Of a stretch of 32,000 nt of DNA, positions 15,772 to 32,000 are shown in pieces; the stretch's first letter is position 1; each line of letters starts with the position of its first letter. The position numbers and the translations under genes are program-made. This stretch comes from Ktedonobacterales bacterium (GTDB taxonomy: Bacteria; Chloroflexota; Ktedonobacteria; Ktedonobacterales; JADMIN01). Location: assembly GCA_030167145.1 (NCBI GenBank), contig CP126532.1, positions 4,830,001 through 4,862,000 of the forward strand, in the 5' to 3' direction. A model generated the notes under the pieces. The model was not told where the DNA came from. It ran no database searches and saw only the letters and a program-made list of their open reading frames with translations.

Positions 15772-17421
15772 CTATCGCCCGATGTCTTTGCGTACAAACC
15801 GTGCCGAGGCCAGCGCCAGCGCCACTACTGTGATCGCCAGCACAAGCAGCATATCCCCTAGCGGCAAGCCATGCAGCAGCGGCGTACCGTAATAGTAGAA
15901 GGCGGACAGCCGTTGTACCCCCGCTGGCCAGTTTAGCTCTGGTCCAACAAACGTGATGAAGAACCAGATCACCAGCAAGAAACTCAAGAGGCCCGTATCC
16001 ACCGCGGCGCGCAGCCAGCCGGAGAATAGATAACCCAGCGCCGCCATCAGCAGCCCCAGCGGAATGATTGAGAGCGAAGCCGCAGCCAAGTTGCCCCCAT
16101 TGAGCGCCAGCCCGCTAGCCGCCGATGCCAACGTCGTCAACGCCAGTGTTACCATCGCAATGATCACCGTCGCCGTCGCCACTGCGGCGTATCGCGCCAG
16201 CACCACCGAGAGACGCGACTGCGGCGTCGCCAGCACCAGCTCTTGCAGGCCGTCTTCTTCATCGGCGGCCCAGCGCCCCGCCTGGGTGACGGCAAAGGCC
16301 ATCAACAGCACCGGCAAGAAGACGAAGAAGAAACTCAGCAGCGTGGCGTTGGTGTTCACATCTCCCCCGCCCACCTTGGTCAGCAGGTCTTTCAGCAGCG
16401 GCGAGCCTTCGTAGAGGGTTCTCAGTTTTTGCTCTGTTTGCTGAACGATGAAGATCATCCATGCCGAAAAGCCCGCGATAACTACCGTCCACCAGAACGT
16501 GGGAACCGCAATCGTCGCCAGACTGCGCGTATACACCGAGCGCAGCGACCAGGCATTCACCGGCAACGCCTGTTCTGGTCGCATCGCGCGTTTCGGCGGC
16601 TGTAGCCACTGTGGCAGCGCCACCGGCGCGCCCACATCGCGCCGCAGGAACAACCAGATCGCCGCCCCGCTCAATACTACGCTCAACGCTACCATCACCA
16701 GCATCGCGACAGGATTGCTGCCATAGCTCGGTATCAGCGGCTTGCTCAGGTTGTAGTAGTAAACCGGCGAAAGGCGTGAGATCCAATCGGTATCGGGAAT
16801 TACCCGATGGATCATATCCACCACGATGAAGAGCGCTAGCAATCCACCCGTAATGCCCGACGCCGTGCGCCGCTCCTGGGTGAATTGCGCGATGAGCAGC
16901 GCGATGCTCCCAAACACCCCGCAGATGAGCGCCAGATTCAGGCCAAACAGCAGAGACTCGCTCAAGGTAAACTCAGCATTTACCCGCGCGCCACCGGCAT
17001 ACGTCAGCAGCCCGATGAGCAGCGCCATCGCCAGCAGAGCCGTCCACATCGCCGCCAGTTTCTCCAGCACTACCAGCCCGCGTCCGCGCGGCTGCGAAAG
17101 CAGCATATCCAGCGAGCCACGCTCTTCCTCGCCACGCAGCATACGGCTGCCCACCAGTATCGGCCAGAGCGCCATCACCAAAATCGTAAAGCCATACTTC
17201 CAGGTGGCGTACCCGCCAGCGGTGTCAACCTTGATCGGCTCGGCGATCCACGCGAAGGAACCAGCCAGACTGACCAGTGACGCGCGCGCCTCCGGCGTCG
17301 CTATCACCGACGAGATGGCTGTCACCACTGCGTACATCAGCAAGCCCAGGCCGATGCCCCAGCCAAAAATGGCGATGCGAAAATCGCGCAGTGTTTTGAG
17401 ATAGACACTACCGAACCACAT
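15772..17421 (-). CDS. ABC-2-type exporter permease (large, ~12 TM)
   Basis: Highly hydrophobic ORF. I prefer the ATG at 17421 (MWFGSVYLKTLRDF), which overlaps the ATPase stop by 14 nt. The track start at 17463 is also possible. Confidence 0.75.
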   Translation of the reverse strand: MWFGSVYLKTLRDFRIAIFGWGIGLGLLMYAVVTAISSVIATPEARASLVSLAGSFAWIAEPIKVDTAGGYATWKYGFTILVMALWPILVGSRMLRGEEERGSLDMLLSQPRGRGLVVLEKLAAMWTALLAMALLIGLLTYAGGARVNAEFTLSESLLFGLNLALICGVFGSIALLIAQFTQERRTASGITGGLLALFIVVDMIHRVIPDTDWISRLSPVYYYNLSKPLIPSYGSNPVAMLVMVALSVVLSGAAIWLFLRRDVGAPVALPQWLQPPKRAMRPEQALPVNAWSLRSVYTRSLATIAVPTFWWTVVIAGFSAWMIFIVQQTEQKLRTLYEGSPLLKDLLTKVGGGDVNTNATLLSFFFVFLPVLLMAFAVTQAGRWAADEEDGLQELVLATPQSRLSVVLARYAAVATATVIIAMVTLALTTLASAASGLALNGGNLAAASLSIIPLGLLMAALGYLFSGWLRAAVDTGLLSFLLVIWFFITFVGPELNWPAGVQRLSAFYYYGTPLLHGLPLGDMLLVLAITVVALALASARFVRKDIGR

Positions 17422-27015: not shown

Positions 27016-27045
27016 TTGACAGGATGGTGTGCGCTTCTGCATAAC
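27016..27045 (+). promoter_or_regulatory. Putative promoter of the imuB-dnaE2 cassette
   Basis: TTGACA (27016-27021), 18-nt spacer, -10-like CATAAC (27040-27045). Confidence 0.5.
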
Positions 27046-27048
27046 GAT

Positions 27049-27062
27049 AGAACATGCGTTCT
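27049..27062. promoter_or_regulatory. LexA (SOS) box, GAAC-N4-GTTC type
   Basis: AGAAC ATGC GTTCT has perfect palindromic arms. It lies directly after the -10 and 27 nt before the imuB ATG. It is the only such site I found in the window. Confidence 0.75.
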
Positions 27063-27088
27063 TGTTTAGCGAAAGGGAGGCGGTCGGT

Positions 27089-28543
27089 ATGCGTGAGCTA
27101 CAGGCGGACGATGTGGTGTGCGCGGCGCTGCCGGAGGTGGGGGCAGCAGACGTGGTGGGGACGGCTGAGTATGTGGCGTGGGTGCAAATCCAAGATGTTC
27201 ACCGTGCGCTAGGTGCGGATACGGCGCAATGGGACCAGACATGGCAGCGGCTGTGCTGGCAGGTGACGGCACGGATGGAGATCGTGGAGGGTAGAGAGGA
27301 TGGGAAGGCGGAACTTAAGGGGAGCGATACGCATGGAGCGCATAGAGCGGGCGCACTGGCGGGCAGCCCTCTTCGGAACGACTCAGAGGGACTGCGCTTC
27401 ACTGGTGCGCTGCTGGCGCTGGGGTGGTGCGCGGCGACGGAGGCGGCGGGTGTGGCGCACGGGCTGGTGGGACGGCTGGCGGCGGCAGGCTACCGGGCGC
27501 GGATGGGCATCGGGCCAAATGCGACGCTGGCGCAATTGGCGCTCCAGTGCGGGAGAGCGGCGAGCAAGCTGAAGGGGCAAACGGTGGTGGTGGTGACGCC
27601 GGGGGAGGCGGTGGAGCGGTTGCTGGCGCGGACGCCGGTGGGGGCGCTGGCGGGGCTGCATCCGCGCGGGGTGGTGACGGCGGAGACGGTGGAACGATTG
27701 CGGCGGTATGGGCTGCGGACGTTGGGGCAGGTGGCGCGGCTGGTGGAACGCTCCGGGGAGGTGGCGCTGCGGCGGCAGTTTGGCCCAGTGGTGGGGGGCG
27801 CGCTGGTGGCGCTGGCACGGGGCGAGGAGCTACGTCCGTTGCAGCCGACGATGCAGCCGGAGACGTTGCGCTGTCGAGTGCGCTGGGTGATGGGTGGCTC
27901 GGCGACACAGGTGGGGGTAGGGCTGGGGAGGCTGGCAGAGCGAATCGCGGGGACGCTGGCGGAACGGGAGCAGGCGGCGGGACGGCTGCGGCTGCGGGTG
28001 GTATGGGCGCATGGTGGGGTGACGGAAGCGGAAACGCGGCTGCGCGAGCGCATCTCTGAGGCGCGACGGGTGGCGGAGGGTCTGCGGGCGCTGTGGGAGC
28101 AGTTCGTGGACCAGGACACCGACCACGGCGCAGAACATAGGGAAAATGGGCAAGGCAGGCAAGGCTGGGAGCGGCGCGCTGAGGTAGCAGACGTGGCAGT
28201 GGAGATAGAGGATTTGGTGGTGGTGCGACCAGCGCAGGGGGCCTTCTGGAAAGGGAGCGTGCAGCAGAATGCGACACTTTCGGTGCTCCGTGCGCGCGTG
28301 CGCGAGCGATTTGGTACGGGGTCGCAGGGGTTGGGACAGATCACATGTGTCGCGCCGGAGGCGGTGTTTGCGGAAGAGCGGTATGTGGTGGATGAGGGGA
28401 GCGATGAACAGATGGGCGGGCACCCGACACGGCCCACGCGGCTGGCAGGGGAGCGAGCGGCAGTGAGGACGGCAGACGGCAGCGCGGAGCGCGTCTGTGG
28501 CAATCCCTGGGCGGACGTGCCGCTGCGCTTGCATTGGTGGTGA
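27089..28543 (+). CDS. imuB: ImuB-like Y-family DNA polymerase homologue (probably catalytically inactive)
   Basis: The ATG at 27089 lies 8 nt after AAGGGAGG. MGIGPNATLAQLAL corresponds to the Y-family GIAPNKxLAK motif. An HhH/thumb region follows (LPVGALAGLHP...VERLRRYGLRTLGQVARL), then little-finger-like strands (RLRLRVVW...VAVEIEDLVVV), then QGAFW (28235-28249), a candidate beta-clamp motif. I could not recognise an N-terminal acidic catalytic triad. Confidence 0.8.
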   Translation: MRELQADDVVCAALPEVGAADVVGTAEYVAWVQIQDVHRALGADTAQWDQTWQRLCWQVTARMEIVEGREDGKAELKGSDTHGAHRAGALAGSPLRNDSEGLRFTGALLALGWCAATEAAGVAHGLVGRLAAAGYRARMGIGPNATLAQLALQCGRAASKLKGQTVVVVTPGEAVERLLARTPVGALAGLHPRGVVTAETVERLRRYGLRTLGQVARLVERSGEVALRRQFGPVVGGALVALARGEELRPLQPTMQPETLRCRVRWVMGGSATQVGVGLGRLAERIAGTLAEREQAAGRLRLRVVWAHGGVTEAETRLRERISEARRVAEGLRALWEQFVDQDTDHGAEHRENGQGRQGWERRAEVADVAVEIEDLVVVRPAQGAFWKGSVQQNATLSVLRARVRERFGTGSQGLGQITCVAPEAVFAEERYVVDEGSDEQMGGHPTRPTRLAGERAAVRTADGSAERVCGNPWADVPLRLHWW

Positions 28544-28550
28544 GCAAGCC

Positions 28551-28889
28551 ATGGGCCATGTGTATTCGCAGGTGATTGCGGTGATAACTGCTGCTGCGGG
28601 GGAACGACCGGAGCGGCTGGTATGGCGTGGGCGAGAGTATACGGTGGCGGAGGTGCTGAGCACGTGGCGGCTGCGGGATCGCTGGTGGGAGGAGCTGCCA
28701 CCACTTTCGGATGCACTCGAACCAGGAGAGCAACCACAACCTGGACAACCAGGGCACGGCCAGGGGCGACGGTTGGGAGGTGCGAGCGAGCGGACGTACT
28801 GGCGGGTGCGGTGCGTAGAGGGGATGATCTGCGACGTGTATGAAGATGCGGCGCGGGGGGTGTGGATGCTGGATAAGGTCTATGACTGA
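28551..28889 (+). CDS. Small W/R-rich protein (112 aa) wedged between imuB and dnaE2; possible detached ImuB C-terminal module
   Basis: The ATG at 28551 lies 7 nt after the imuB stop, with GGTGGTGAG as an SD-like element. NNG codon periodicity resumes exactly at this ATG. The stop overlaps the dnaE2 ATG by 8 nt. Sequence motifs: ...WRLRDRWWEE...YWRVRC...GVWMLDKVYD. Confidence 0.7.
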   Translation: MGHVYSQVIAVITAAAGERPERLVWRGREYTVAEVLSTWRLRDRWWEELPPLSDALEPGEQPQPGQPGHGQGRRLGGASERTYWRVRCVEGMICDVYEDAARGVWMLDKVYD

Positions 28890-31800
28890 GATGCTGACAG
28901 AGAGCGAGCGAGCAGCAGGCAAGGATACAGGCGGCGGTGGGAGAGCAGACGGCAGACGTTGGGAGACGCCACTCAACGGCGATGCGGGAACAGGTACAGG
29001 GCCTACAGAGTACGGGGACTACGTGGAGTTGCACTCCGCGAGCGCGTACAGTTTCCGGCGGGCGGGGAGTAGCGTGGAGGCGTTGGTGGCGCGGGCGGTG
29101 GCGCGGGCGGCGGCGCTGGGGACGGAGCGGGGCATACGGGCGCTGGCGCTGACGGACGAGATGACGCTGGCGGGGGTGGTGCGCTTCCAGGCGGCGTGCG
29201 CGGAACACGGGGTGAAGGGGATCGTGGGCTGCGCGCTGGCGGTGAGCGAGCCGCACTTTGGGACGGGGGCGGCGGGGCGACAACCGGCGGAAGTGGTGGC
29301 GCTGGCGGAGAATCAGACGGGGTATGCGCGGCTGTGTGCGTTGCTGACGGCGGCGAATCTGCGTGCGCCCGATGCGCCGGTGATTGCTTTCGCAGAACTG
29401 GCGGCGGAGCCAGAAGGGCTGATCTTGCTGACGGGTGGGCCAGAGGCGGGGACGCTGGCGCGGTTGGTGCGGGCGGGACGGCGGCAGGAGGCGGTGGCGG
29501 TGGCGCGGCGGTACCATGCGGTGTTTGGCGCAGAGCGAGTGTTCGTGGAGGTGCAGCAGCAGCGGTTGCCGGAGAGCGTGGGGCTGATGCAGGGGTTGGT
29601 GGAGGTGGCGGCAGAGGCGGGGCTGCGGGTGGTGGCGACCAATGGGGTGCGCTATGCGACACGGGCGGAGTACGCGGTGTATGACCTGCTGACCTGTGTG
29701 CGGCTGGGCATCTCGGTGGATGTGGCGCACCGGGAGCGGCCACGCAATGACGAGGCGTATCTGAAGTCGGATGCGGAGATGCGGGCGCTGTTCGCGGGGC
29801 TGCCGTGGGGGGAAGCGGCGCTGGCGGCGACGGGGGAGATTGCGGGGCGGTGCGCGGTGGCGCTGCTGCGGGGGACGTGTACGGCTCCGGCGGTGGCGCT
29901 GGCGGATGGGGAGACGCCGGACGAGCGGCTGGCGGCGCTGTGTGAGGAGGGGTTGTGGACGCGGTATGGAGCGCCTGTGGGACGGGATGCAGGCGACGGG
30001 CAAGGGCAGGTTGGGCAGGTTGGGCAGGTTGGGCAGGTTGGGCAGGTTGGGCAGGTTGGGCAGGTTGGGCAGGTTGGGCAGGTTGGGCAGGTTGGGTGGA
30101 CGAGAATACAGGCAGAGGGCGAGGCAGGCCTCGCCCCTACACCGTCCCCACCAGCAGCAGAGCAGTTGCCAGAAGAGGCGATGCCAGAAGCATTGCGGGC
30201 GGGGAGTGCGCCGCGGCGGCAACTGGCGCATGAGTTGGACGTGATTGGGCGGTTAGAGTTGGCGGAGTTTTTTTTGTGTGTGCGGGAGATGGTGAGCGCG
30301 GCGCGGGGGATGGGGGTGCGCATCAGCGGGCGGGGGTCAGCGGCGAACAGCCTGGTGGCGTATCTGCTGGGCATTACCGGGGTGGACCCCATCGCGCATG
30401 GGCTGCTGTTCGAGCGGTTCTTGAATCCAGAGCGGCGGGGGATGCCAGATATTGACCTGGATATTCAGAGCGACCGGCGGGAGGAGGTGATTCGCTGGGT
30501 GGAACGGCGGTACGGCCACGAACATGCGGCGATGGTGGCGAATGTGATGACGTATCGGGCGCGGCTGGCGCTGCGGGATGTGGCGAAGGCGCTGGGGTAT
30601 CCACTCGACGTGGTCAACCAGATGACCAAGGTGCTGCCGCACTACTGCGGGCGAGGGGAGATCGCGGGGTATGCGGAGGAGCTGGCGGGGGTGATTGCGC
30701 GAGCGGCGCAGGGACAGGGCGAGGTAGGCCTCGCCCCTACATCCACCAGACGAAGAGGGTGGACTACAGAGATAGGGCTGCGGCGGCTGCCGCTGGCGCT
30801 GGGGTTGGCGGCGCGGGTGTGTGGGTTGCCCCGGCACCTGAGCTTGCATAATGGGGGGATGGTGCTCTCGCGGGCGCGGCTGGCGGCGGTGTTGCCGGTG
30901 CGGGTCTCGGCGAATGGGGTGCGGGCGCTGGAGGTGGATAAAGACGATGTGGAGCGACTGGGACTGATCAAGTTCGACCTGTTGGGGTTGCGGACGCTGG
31001 GGGCGGTGGCGGAGGCGTTGACGTTGATCGAGGAGACGACGGGGACACGGCCGGATGTGGACCAGTTGCCGACCGAGCCGCCGGATGAACAGACGATGCG
31101 CCTGATCCGGGCGGGGCAGACGCTGGCGGTGTTTCAGATTGAGTCGCCGGGGCAGTGGCATTTGCTGGCGCAGACGCAGCCGGAGACGTTCAATGATCTG
31201 ATCGTACAGACGGCGTTGTTTCGTCCGGGGCCGATTCAGGGCGGGTTTGTGCGGCCGTATGTGGAGCAGCGCAGGGAAAAGCATGGGCAATGGCAGTGGG
31301 AGAGTCTCCAACGGGAGCAACAACAGGCAGAGCAACAACAGGCAGAGCAGCAATGGGCAGAGCAGCGGGATGCGGTGCAGACGCCGTGGCAGAGCGGTCA
31401 GGCGGATACCTTCTGGACGGGGCATGCGGTGCTGGGGCCGATCCTGCGGGAGAGCGAGGGGATTCTACTGTTTCAGGAGCAGATTCTGGAGATTGCGCAT
31501 CAGTTCGCGGGGCTGAGCTATGCCGAGGCGGATGGGTTCCGGCGGGCGATGTCGCATCAACGGGAGCCGGAGCAGATGGCGGCGATGCGGGAGCGGTTCG
31601 TGGCGGGGGCCATCGAGCGGGGGGAGACGGCGGCGGATGCGGAGCGGGTGTTCGGCGCGGTGTCGGCGTTTGTGGGGTATGGGTTCTGCAAGAGCCATGC
31701 GGCGGAGTTCGCGCGGACGATCTATCAGACGGCGTGGCTGAAGGCGCACTATCCGGCGCACTATCTGGCGGCGTTCCTCTCGGCGCAACCTGCGGGGTTC

Positions 31801-32000
31801 TTTCCGCCGCATGTGGTGCTGGAGGAGGCGAAGCTGCTGGGGGTGCCGGTGCTGCCGCCGGAGGTGAACCGGAGCGAGGGGCGGTTCACGGTGGAGTGGG
31901 TGGGGCAGCATGGTACAGCGGGGAGCCGGTATGCGCGGTGGGGGATCCGGATTGGGTTGGCGCAGGTGCGAGGGGTGGGGGAGGAGTTGGCGCGGGCGAT
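28882..32000 (+). CDS. dnaE2: Error-prone DNA polymerase III alpha-subunit paralogue DnaE2 (ImuC); 3' end outside window
   Basis: Own translation of frame 1; the frame is open to the window edge, so it is absent from the ORF track. YVELHSASAYSF (PHP), GRGSAANSLVAYLLGITGVDPI, FERFLNPERRGMPDIDLDI, LPRHLSLHNGGMVLS, GLIKFDLLGLRTLG, VFQIESPGQ, ALFRPGPIQGG, LLFQEQILE, GYGFCKSHAAEFA. An ATG at 28891 is an alternative start. Confidence 0.9.
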   Translation, partial: MTEMLTESERAAGKDTGGGGRADGRRWETPLNGDAGTGTGPTEYGDYVELHSASAYSFRRAGSSVEALVARAVARAAALGTERGIRALALTDEMTLAGVVRFQAACAEHGVKGIVGCALAVSEPHFGTGAAGRQPAEVVALAENQTGYARLCALLTAANLRAPDAPVIAFAELAAEPEGLILLTGGPEAGTLARLVRAGRRQEAVAVARRYHAVFGAERVFVEVQQQRLPESVGLMQGLVEVAAEAGLRVVATNGVRYATRAEYAVYDLLTCVRLGISVDVAHRERPRNDEAYLKSDAEMRALFAGLPWGEAALAATGEIAGRCAVALLRGTCTAPAVALADGETPDERLAALCEEGLWTRYGAPVGRDAGDGQGQVGQVGQVGQVGQVGQVGQVGQVGQVGQVGWTRIQAEGEAGLAPTPSPPAAEQLPEEAMPEALRAGSAPRRQLAHELDVIGRLELAEFFLCVREMVSAARGMGVRISGRGSAANSLVAYLLGITGVDPIAHGLLFERFLNPERRGMPDIDLDIQSDRREEVIRWVERRYGHEHAAMVANVMTYRARLALRDVAKALGYPLDVVNQMTKVLPHYCGRGEIAGYAEELAGVIARAAQGQGEVGLAPTSTRRRGWTTEIGLRRLPLALGLAARVCGLPRHLSLHNGGMVLSRARLAAVLPVRVSANGVRALEVDKDDVERLGLIKFDLLGLRTLGAVAEALTLIEETTGTRPDVDQLPTEPPDEQTMRLIRAGQTLAVFQIESPGQWHLLAQTQPETFNDLIVQTALFRPGPIQGGFVRPYVEQRREKHGQWQWESLQREQQQAEQQQAEQQWAEQRDAVQTPWQSGQADTFWTGHAVLGPILRESEGILLFQEQILEIAHQFAGLSYAEADGFRRAMSHQREPEQMAAMRERFVAGAIERGETAADAERVFGAVSAFVGYGFCKSHAAEFARTIYQTAWLKAHYPAHYLAAFLSAQPAGFFPPHVVLEEAKLLGVPVLPPEVNRSEGRFTVEWVGQHGTAGSRYARWGIRIGLAQVRGVGEELARA
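30004..30096 (+). repeat. Perfect 9-bp tandem repeat (CAGGTTGGG x10) inside dnaE2, encoding (GQV)10
   Basis: Ten identical units span 30007-30096, preceded by ggg. The array is codon-aligned with the dnaE2 frame. Confidence 0.98.
30116..30141 (+). repeat. 26-nt GC-rich palindromic element, copy 1 (in dnaE2 frame)
   Basis: aGGGCGAGGcaggCCTCGCCCctaca: an 8-bp stem GGGCGAGG/CCTCGCCC with a 4-nt loop. 25/26 identical to copy 2. Confidence 0.9.
30716..30741 (+). repeat. 26-nt GC-rich palindromic element, copy 2 (in dnaE2 frame)
   Basis: aGGGCGAGGtaggCCTCGCCCctaca, exactly 600 bp after copy 1 and therefore in the same codon phase. Confidence 0.9.
31315..31374 (+). repeat. Decaying 15-bp tandem repeat inside dnaE2 (EQQQA EQQQA EQQWA EQRDA)
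   Basis: gagcaacaacaggca x2 (perfect), then gagcagcaatgggca, then gagcagcgggatgcg. The array is codon-aligned. Confidence 0.85.

Follow-up and report, generated by a model that had tools for sequence, protein, structure and literature searches.

The dnaE2 gene of a Ktedonobacterales bacterium, which encodes an error-prone DNA polymerase, carries at two distant places the same short palindromic element, read in frame. The window is a stretch of 32,000 nt from contig CP126532.1 (GenBank assembly GCA_030167145.1, positions 4,830,001 to 4,862,000 of the forward strand), and the element is a 26-mer that folds into a GC-rich hairpin next to the tetranucleotide GTAG. At a probability of about 0.78, both 26-mers represent single units of a repetitive extragenic palindrome (REP) tagged with GTAG, of the family GTAG-GGGCGAGGC-NN-GCCTCGCCC, lodged in frame and in the same orientation in two permissive loops of DnaE2. 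The features that carry this reading are as follows, with positions counted from the first letter of the window.

28882..32000, plus strand: dnaE2 coding sequence (error-prone DNA polymerase III alpha-type), which leaves the window and ends at window-equivalent 32871
29977..30183, plus strand: site-1 insertion of 69 residues (amino acids 366-434), between the PHP and palm domains, reading VGRDAGDGQ-(GQV)n-GWTRIQAE-GEAGLAPT-PSPPAAEQLPEEAM
30004..30096, plus strand: perfect tandem repeat of (GGGCAGGTT), 10.3 copies, read in frame as (GQV)n inside the site-1 insertion
30109..30141, plus strand: full repeat of 33 nt given by a repeat finder, with its partner at 30709-30741 and 30 of 33 positions identical
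30116..30141, minus strand: REP copy 1, which reads T-GTAG-GGGCGAGGC-CT-GCCTCGCCC-T on that strand, the GTAG tag being followed by a 9-bp stem (or by one of 8 bp with a 4-nt loop)
30703..30774, plus strand: site-2 linker, hypervariable, reading AAQGQ-GEVGLAPT-STRRRGWTTEI, inside the DNA_pol3_alpha domain
30716..30741, minus strand: REP copy 2, which reads T-GTAG-GGGCGAGG-CCTA-CCTCGCCC-T on that strand

On the plus strand copy 1 is AGGGCGAGGCAGGCCTCGCCCCTACA and copy 2 is AGGGCGAGGTAGGCCTCGCCCCTACA. The two are in direct orientation, exactly 600 nt apart, and identical at 25 of 26 positions; the sole difference is a substitution at the edge of the loop, from C to T on the plus strand. Each copy forms a perfect 8-bp stem of GGGCGAGG and CCTCGCCC around a 4-nt loop. 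Copy 1 can alternatively pair over 9 bp with a 2-nt loop, and the ninth stem position of copy 2 is T.G, which gives a G.U wobble in the mRNA. The predicted RNA folding energies of the hairpins are -18 to -24 kcal/mol, with z about -3 to -4. The original prediction had described two palindromic copies of this kind, with these positions, stems and loops, both read in one codon phase as GE(A/V)GLAPT and without a further copy in the remaining 31 kb, and re-reading of the sequence agrees with it throughout. The window holds no third copy at up to three mismatches, and none was found in the 13 kb that flank the window on both sides on the same 5.07-Mb contig. At the same tolerance, 100 dinucleotide-preserving shuffles gave no match. 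Among GTAG-tagged hairpins, the two copies are the only ones in the 32 kb whose stem has 7 bp or more, and there is no Rfam match in the window. Apart from its being a multiple of 3, no meaning is evident in the 600-bp spacing.

The segment shared by the two copies reaches 7 nt further 5' than the 26-mer, which gives the 33-nt repeat. These extra bases (CAGGnAn) agree between the copies at five positions of seven, and they are not conserved among family members elsewhere. Outside the 33-nt repeat, the flanks of copy 1 and copy 2 do not align. Both copies lie in codon phase 1 of dnaE2 and encode GEAGLAPT (amino acids 413-420) and GEVGLAPT (amino acids 613-620), numbered from the ATG at 28882. 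Given that neither the orientation nor the phase introduces a stop codon, each unit is translated through as GE(A/V)GLAPT and the frame of the polymerase is left intact.

Assignment of the element to a class follows Di Nocera, De Gregorio and Rocco (BMC Genomics 2013, PMC3733652), who defined the GTAG- and CGTC-tagged REP superfamilies and described stems of 6-13 bp, loops of mostly 2-3 bp and some REP families common to distant organisms. As applied here, a GTAG-tagged REP is a palindrome of about 20-40 bp that can fold into a stem-loop, the stem having 6-13 bp and the loop mostly 2-4 nt. The element in dnaE2 is a 26-nt unit with a perfect stem of 8-9 bp and a loop of 2-4 nt, and in both copies GTAG directly abuts the stem GGGCGAGG on the minus strand. 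At the level of the family, many copies with unrelated flanks are found across organisms, and at four loci a gene like that for a REP-associated tyrosine transposase (RAYT) is flanked by the hairpin or interrupted by it in frame.

The two sites are variable parts of an otherwise recognizable polymerase. The dnaE2 open reading frame (ORF) encodes the PHP, DNA_pol3_alpha, finger and HHH domains, and the closest relatives, at about 70% identity, are Ktedonobacterales proteins whose annotation is either error-prone DNA polymerase or DNA polymerase III alpha. Its start is uncertain from the sequence; the ATG at 28882, which overlaps the stop of a DUF6504 ORF, was adopted, with the ATG at 28891 as the alternative. 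The public gene call begins at window-equivalent 29074. That start would drop the conserved opening motif of the PHP domain, YVELHSASAYSF (YVELH, coded from about 29020). An upstream start fits the homologue alignment better.

In an alignment of 31 sequences the site-1 insertion is missing from 28 of the 30 homologues, and in the remaining two, P0010 and P0036, the same point holds insertions unrelated to it. The site-2 linker differs in length and sequence in every aligned homologue. Both copies had been placed in variable regions by the original prediction, the second of them between ELAGVIARAA and LPRHLSLHNGG; the quoted motifs are correct, and the alignment bears out the variability of both sites. 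Neither GE(A/V)GLAPT, with its equivalents in other frames, nor the looser pattern G[ED][AV].[LV]APT occurs in any of the 120 DnaE2 homologues listed. A HMMER alignment to the Pol III alpha of Thermus aquaticus (3E0D) is interrupted at query residues 364-444 and shows gaps across site 2. The AlphaFold model of DnaE2 has a mean predicted local distance difference test score (pLDDT) of 80.5 and a predicted template modelling score of 0.81. Site 1 is modelled as coil at residues 367-420, with pLDDT below 50, between confident helices at 346-362 and 443-457. Site 2 is modelled as coil at residues 610-628, between confident helices at 591-609 and 629-646; its pLDDT falls below 50 at residues 621-623, and ten-residue blocks average 56-69. 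According to the model, both peptides sit in structurally permissive, disordered loops.

Other kinds of DNA are found at the same points in relatives. The site-1 insertion of P0010 is a degenerate repeat of RQKRQ type, and the large, unrelated site-2 insertion of P0071 holds another hairpin, CCCGGCCT/AGGCCGGG; both were considered as further cases of the GTAG hairpin and rejected. As the two insertions are of other repeat types, these loops of DnaE2 gather diverse inserted DNA. The (GGGCAGGTT) array ends 12 nt upstream of the 33-nt unit of copy 1 and 19 nt upstream of its 26-mer. The complete identity of its units suggests recent expansion, with length polymorphism possible. A third lineage-variable insertion of DnaE2 is located in the finger domain, at 31273-31380. 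It is Q-rich (REKHGQWQWESLQREQQQAEQQQAEQQWAEQ), is a low-confidence coil in the model (amino acids 815-835) and includes, at 31315-31364, a 15-nt unit repeated in tandem 3.3 times; the surrounding RDAVQTPW block as a whole is confined to the closer Ktedonobacterales homologues.

Copies of the hairpin elsewhere show that the element belongs to a dispersed family. A scan of one genome per species with the pattern GGGCGAGGNNNNCCTCGCCCCTA gave at least 120 loci. The genome matches listed span Chloroflexota, Actinomycetota, Cyanobacteria, Proteobacteria, Bacteroidota and Firmicutes, and also include Planctomycetota, Acidobacteriota, Gemmatimonadota and others. Among the matches listed, the GC content of the host loci runs from 0.37 to 0.75 and the commonest form is GGGCGAGGC-AT-GCCTCGCCC. 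The base after the CTA imposed by the pattern is C in 150 of the 155 genome matches listed; because this base was not forced, the CTAC tag (= GTAG) is a genuine conserved feature. Twenty-three elements among the matches listed have the tag at both ends and are perfect palindromes. The exact 25-mer GGGCGAGGYAGGCCTCGCCCCTACA (loop YAGG, tail CTACA) was found at a minimum of 120 metagenome loci, with unrelated flanks, and a looser 23-mer pattern at 36 viral-contig loci. These matches show the element to be, at the level of the family, a multi-copy one outside the window. Neither a lack of further copies nor a conserved peptide in homologues, which the original prediction had named together as evidence against itself, was thus observed. 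The T-variant loop of copy 2 recurs at two of the loci (L207 and L236).

Family members are arranged in several ways. Inverted doublets of the hairpin occur, for example at L064, L077 and L201. A second GTAG hairpin, GTAGGGGCGACGC-CT-GCGTCGCCC, stands directly 5' of the hairpin of the window type at seven loci (L138, L141, L173, L187, L205, L224 and L232), and the two form a recurrent head-to-tail doublet. Tandem hairpin arrays with fixed spacers were seen at L155 (37-nt period), L055 (108-nt period) and L114. The share of hairpins deep in a long ORF, 16%, is an upper bound, given that 7 of 10 long open frames tested have no Pfam domain and are probably spurious in GC-rich DNA. Two other genes contain the exact 25-mer in frame. 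One encodes a DnaE1-type DNA polymerase III alpha (L240, 863-3673, minus strand), where the 25-mer follows just after the OB fold, has the opposite orientation and encodes VGARPASPE. The other encodes a Type ISP restriction-modification enzyme (L243, 467-3484, minus strand), where it falls within the C-terminal specificity domain. A palindrome pair at L063 was set aside, as it flanks an ordinary short-chain dehydrogenase-like gene and not a transposase. Full-text literature matches for the element (GTAGGGGCGA, TCGCCCCTAC) or for the peptides GEACLAPT, GRGMPRPY, GDACVAPT and GEAGLAPT were unrelated primer coincidences only.

A link to a transposase comes from the genes near the hairpins. All-against-all clustering of 3668 ORFs near hairpins gave no dominant neighbour family, which is what dispersed repeats would lead one to expect. 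A small cluster made up of four ORFs is RAYT-like, and its members are given here in the coordinates of their own loci.

349-948: RAYT-like ORF of L133
37-657, minus strand: RAYT-like ORF of L245
47-1144, minus strand: RAYT-like ORF of L097
4816-6093: RAYT-like ORF of L082

Pfam Y1_Tnp (PF01797) matches three of the four. Among NCBIfam models, NF047646 (REP-associated tyrosine transposase) scores best for three of the ORFs and clearly matches L082 as well, with E values of 1e-8 to 1e-16; phmmer with E. coli RayT gave two weak matches (E 0.003 and 0.008). The HUH (MPNHFH) and YY(E/D)H motifs are recognizable in the proteins. No additional RAYT-like ORF was detected among the 285 loci with Pfam, NCBIfam or a profile made from the four sequences. 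At L245, the transposase gene is bracketed by two inverted hairpins, and at L082 the GTAG of the hairpin provides the stop codon of the transposase. At L133 and L097, the hairpin is in frame inside the transposase gene, and this holds for the ORF of L245 as well. The protein of L133 reads ...HGIIIINHT-GEAGLAPT-QTLGS..., with GEAGLAPT, the peptide of dnaE2 copy 1, right after the HUH motif. The four proteins are mutually only 27-40% identical and their loci range in GC from 0.43 to 0.62, with the same hairpin at each. Therefore, the REP is far more conserved than the presumed transposase.

A parallel is found in the Ktedonobacterales metagenome-assembled genome GCA_035763125.1 (L121), whose dnaE2 (protein P0036) has its own site-1 insertion with two GTAG hairpins, AGGGCGTCC-GCA-GGACGCCCCTACA and AGGGCGT-GCGGCGG-ACGCCCCTACA. 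These sister hairpins have the same orientation and codon phase (..APT) as those of the window. Their outer five stem pairs and tail are identical to those of the window element; at the inner three pairs, the changes in the two arms complement each other. Perfect hairpins headed by GTAGGGGCG lie inside dnaE2 in 4 of 4 cases in about 165 kb of Ktedonobacterales DNA, with a nominal p of 5e-4 from biased sampling. The same related genome has an imperfect hairpin headed by GTAGGGGC at the end of a GCV_T gene (16457-16490), whose TAG overlaps the annotated stop codon; this agrees with the report that GTAG termini of REPs often provide stop codons (PMC3733652). The host genome of the window has a different perfect GTAG...CTAC palindrome, GTAGTCGGTCGCTGC-ACTA-GCAGCGACCGACTAC, with an 11-bp stem, between convergent genes at window-equivalent 35028-35061 (L283, 20440-20473). 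GTAG-tagged palindromes of a second sequence type are thus also present between genes in the host genome.

Several observations weigh against the assignment to a REP family placed by a transposase. Most copies of a typical REP are expected to be intergenic, and the 45 kb read of the 5.07-Mb host contig hold two copies, both in one gene. No RAYT gene was seen in that 45 kb. The RAYT-like proteins at other loci score 32-61 bits, under the NCBIfam equivalog cut-off of 80. The enrichment in dnaE2 is inflated, because L121 was chosen for having an insertion. Finally, the five of seven extra 5' bases that the two copies share are not conserved in 124 other exact-match members, and one copy may derive from the other.

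If the two units are REPs, their arrival can be outlined by analogy with the literature on REP/RAYT and IS200/IS605-type systems. A RAYT would recognize GTAG plus the hairpin as single-stranded DNA, cleave it and rejoin it, and would thereby place the copies. The copies would persist given that dnaE2 is presumably dispensable in normal growth and that the loops would tolerate the extra residues. A function of the hairpins for the host need not be assumed.

It is also conceivable, though we judge it unlikely, that only one REP was inserted and that the second is an intragenic copy of it, made between the two loops by gene conversion, template switching or ectopic repair. The shared 5' bases are what such a copy would leave, as are the identity of 30 of 33 positions, the common orientation and codon phase, and the lack of another copy in 45 kb. 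However, by our own estimate five matches in seven bases would arise by chance in G-rich DNA with a probability of only a few per cent, which is a weak signal, and the alignment of the flanks does not extend past 33 nt. In addition, the T-variant loop occurs independently at L207 and L236, and two REPs at different sites of one gene have already been described for transposed REPs. Intragenic copying would touch only the origin of copy 2 and not the identity of the element.

The second alternative, by which the hairpins serve the gene, has to be considered together with the base composition of the region. Upstream of dnaE2 are an imuB-like ORF and the DUF6504 ORF, in the gene order seen in relatives, and the three genes form a cassette.

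27029..32000, plus strand, continuing to window-equivalent 32871: imuB-like/DUF6504/dnaE2 cassette, with extreme G enrichment of the coding strand
27029-28543: longest imuB-like ORF

The GC skew of the cassette is +0.32 to +0.42 at a GC content of 0.63-0.72, compared with a skew of about 0 and a GC content of 0.56-0.63 in the rest of the region, and the change in skew coincides with the boundaries of the cassette. With the skew outside the cassette averaging about 0, it does not allow a direction of replication to be inferred. Third codon positions are G at 0.50-0.67 and C at 0.13-0.15 in the cassette, and about 0.33 for each in 20 other ORFs of the window. At four-fold sites, G makes up 76% in the cassette (80% in dnaE2), as against 36% across the 21 other ORFs that the extended region contributes. 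Glycine accounts for 12.2% of DnaE2, compared with 7.0% in the homologues. There are 67 GGG per kb in the cassette and about 14 in the rest of the window, and 2.7 and about 15 CCC per kb, respectively. All six of the plus-strand G-quadruplex motifs in 36 kb fall in the cassette, including the (GGGCAGGTT)x10 array beside copy 1, which fits a G3N6 G-quadruplex motif on the non-template strand. The G bias is absent from six related Ktedonobacterales cassettes. The REPs, with their C-rich 3' arms, stand out from this G-rich background. In an independent short-read assembly that covers the same region of the genome (Logan assembly SRR22113990, L284) the contig ends at about window-equivalent 27396, inside the imuB-like gene, where the G-rich cassette starts; the break may reflect coverage or difficulty of assembly in G-rich DNA.

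Intact C-rich arms in a C-depleted gene point either to recent arrival or to selection for pairing, and the latter would make the hairpins selected cis-elements that tune dnaE2, by slowing translation, by stabilizing or cleaving the transcript, or by binding a protein. Stable predicted folding favours such a role, as do a sole difference between the copies that keeps a G.U pair in the mRNA and perfect arms kept where C is strongly depleted. REPs elsewhere are also described as affecting mRNA stability and binding proteins (PMC3733652, PMC3479197). Nevertheless, nothing is conserved at these positions in the 120 homologues listed, and the hairpins of the related genome differ in sequence and share site 1 instead of occupying two sites far apart. 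Rfam gave no match, and the intact arms may equally mean recent insertion. With identical hairpins in unrelated contexts at hundreds of loci, the sequence is explained by membership in the family and not by local selection. A regulatory role is therefore improbable.

A broader proposal, which is speculative and to which we likewise give little credence, makes the REPs part of an unusual architecture of the mutasome operon. R-loops or G-quadruplexes of the G-rich strand would, together with the REP hairpins, gate expression or local mutagenesis, and the base bias may record strand-biased mutation that the operon inflicts on itself. Separately, the 25-mer, kept identical across phyla beside RAYT-like proteins that are only 27-40% identical, would point to an unusually constrained or horizontally mobile REP-RAYT system.

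An ordinary conserved motif of DnaE2, or a chance repeat in GC-rich coding DNA, which is rich in weak repeats (60 repeat families in the window), can be dismissed as next to impossible, given the absence of matches in 100 shuffles, the absence of the peptide from the 120 homologues listed, and its position at sites that are gapped or variable in the alignment.

For a pair of GTAG-tagged REPs in dnaE2, the consequences are first of all practical ones. The peptides GEAGLAPT, GRGxPRPY, RARxASPL and VGARxASP in predicted proteins should be taken with caution, as translated REPs and not as protein motifs. The loop of DnaE2 between the PHP and palm domains and its second variable linker tolerate insertions. 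The case would gain in interest if the accumulation of REPs in dnaE2 proved to exceed what tolerance explains, or if the hairpins, their conservation across phyla or the G bias of the cassette proved to be mechanistically connected.

Among known elements, several were compared with the pair and rejected. The original prediction had offered REP-like and MITE-like elements (a MITE being a miniature inverted-repeat transposable element) as models, and of these the first is retained on account of the GTAG tag, the family and the link to RAYT. A MITE is taken as 70-300 bp with terminal inverted repeats of 15-30 bp and a target-site duplication; here only 33 nt are shared, and terminal inverted repeats and a target-site duplication are both lacking. 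REPINs, mobile units of two inverted REPs with a short spacer, are excluded as well, as the copies are direct and the 600 bp from one to the other include essential polymerase sequence. The analogy that had been drawn with Rickettsia palindromic elements (RPEs) holds for behaviour and not for family. Like RPEs, the hairpins are palindromic repeats in frame in the gene of an apparently functional protein, where they encode short peptides at permissive positions. However, RPEs have no sequence relationship to the hairpin: RPE-1 consists of longer palindromic inserts, and RPE-4 and RPE-6, which are short, belong to the CGTC superfamily (PMC3733652). Membership in the RPE families was rejected, given a GTAG tag in place of CGTC, a unit of 26 nt and a host that belongs to Chloroflexota.

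The REPs and bacterial interspersed mosaic elements (BIMEs) of E. coli, with RayT (TnpA-REP), and the REPINs of Pseudomonas, with their RAYTs, share with the dnaE2 hairpins the GTAG tag beside an imperfect palindrome. Family members that flank genes for RAYT-like Y1 transposases have the arrangement known as a REPtron. The classical REPs of E. coli and Pseudomonas are extragenic, often in inverted pairs (BIME, REPIN), and lineage-specific. In contrast, the window has two singletons in direct orientation inside a gene, and an identical hairpin is found across many phyla.

The closest precedent is the set of intragenic GTAG- and CGTC-tagged REPs of PMC3733652, which lie wholly within ORFs, many of them in genes for replication and repair, where they are enriched. 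Examples are dnaE2 of Opitutus terrae (Oter_4053) and of Sphingomonas wittichii (Swit_1119), dnaE of Rickettsia conorii, and uvrA of O. terrae, which has two inserts; some genes carry two REPs, and in some species such genes are the only ORFs that bear REPs. The accessible parts of the text and supplements of that paper do not mention the stem GGGCGAGG or GTAGGGG. The hairpins of the window differ from those cases in being single units, not dimers or clusters, and in their host, a member of Ktedonobacterales (Chloroflexota). They resemble them in having a GC-rich hairpin with a terminal GTAG, in being read through in frame in the gene of an error-prone polymerase and in occurring as two units at distant sites of one gene, which may be one of only a few ORFs in the region to bear REPs. 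In-frame REPs in dnaE2 are thus a documented kind of event, and the present pair adds an example from Chloroflexota to the published pattern.

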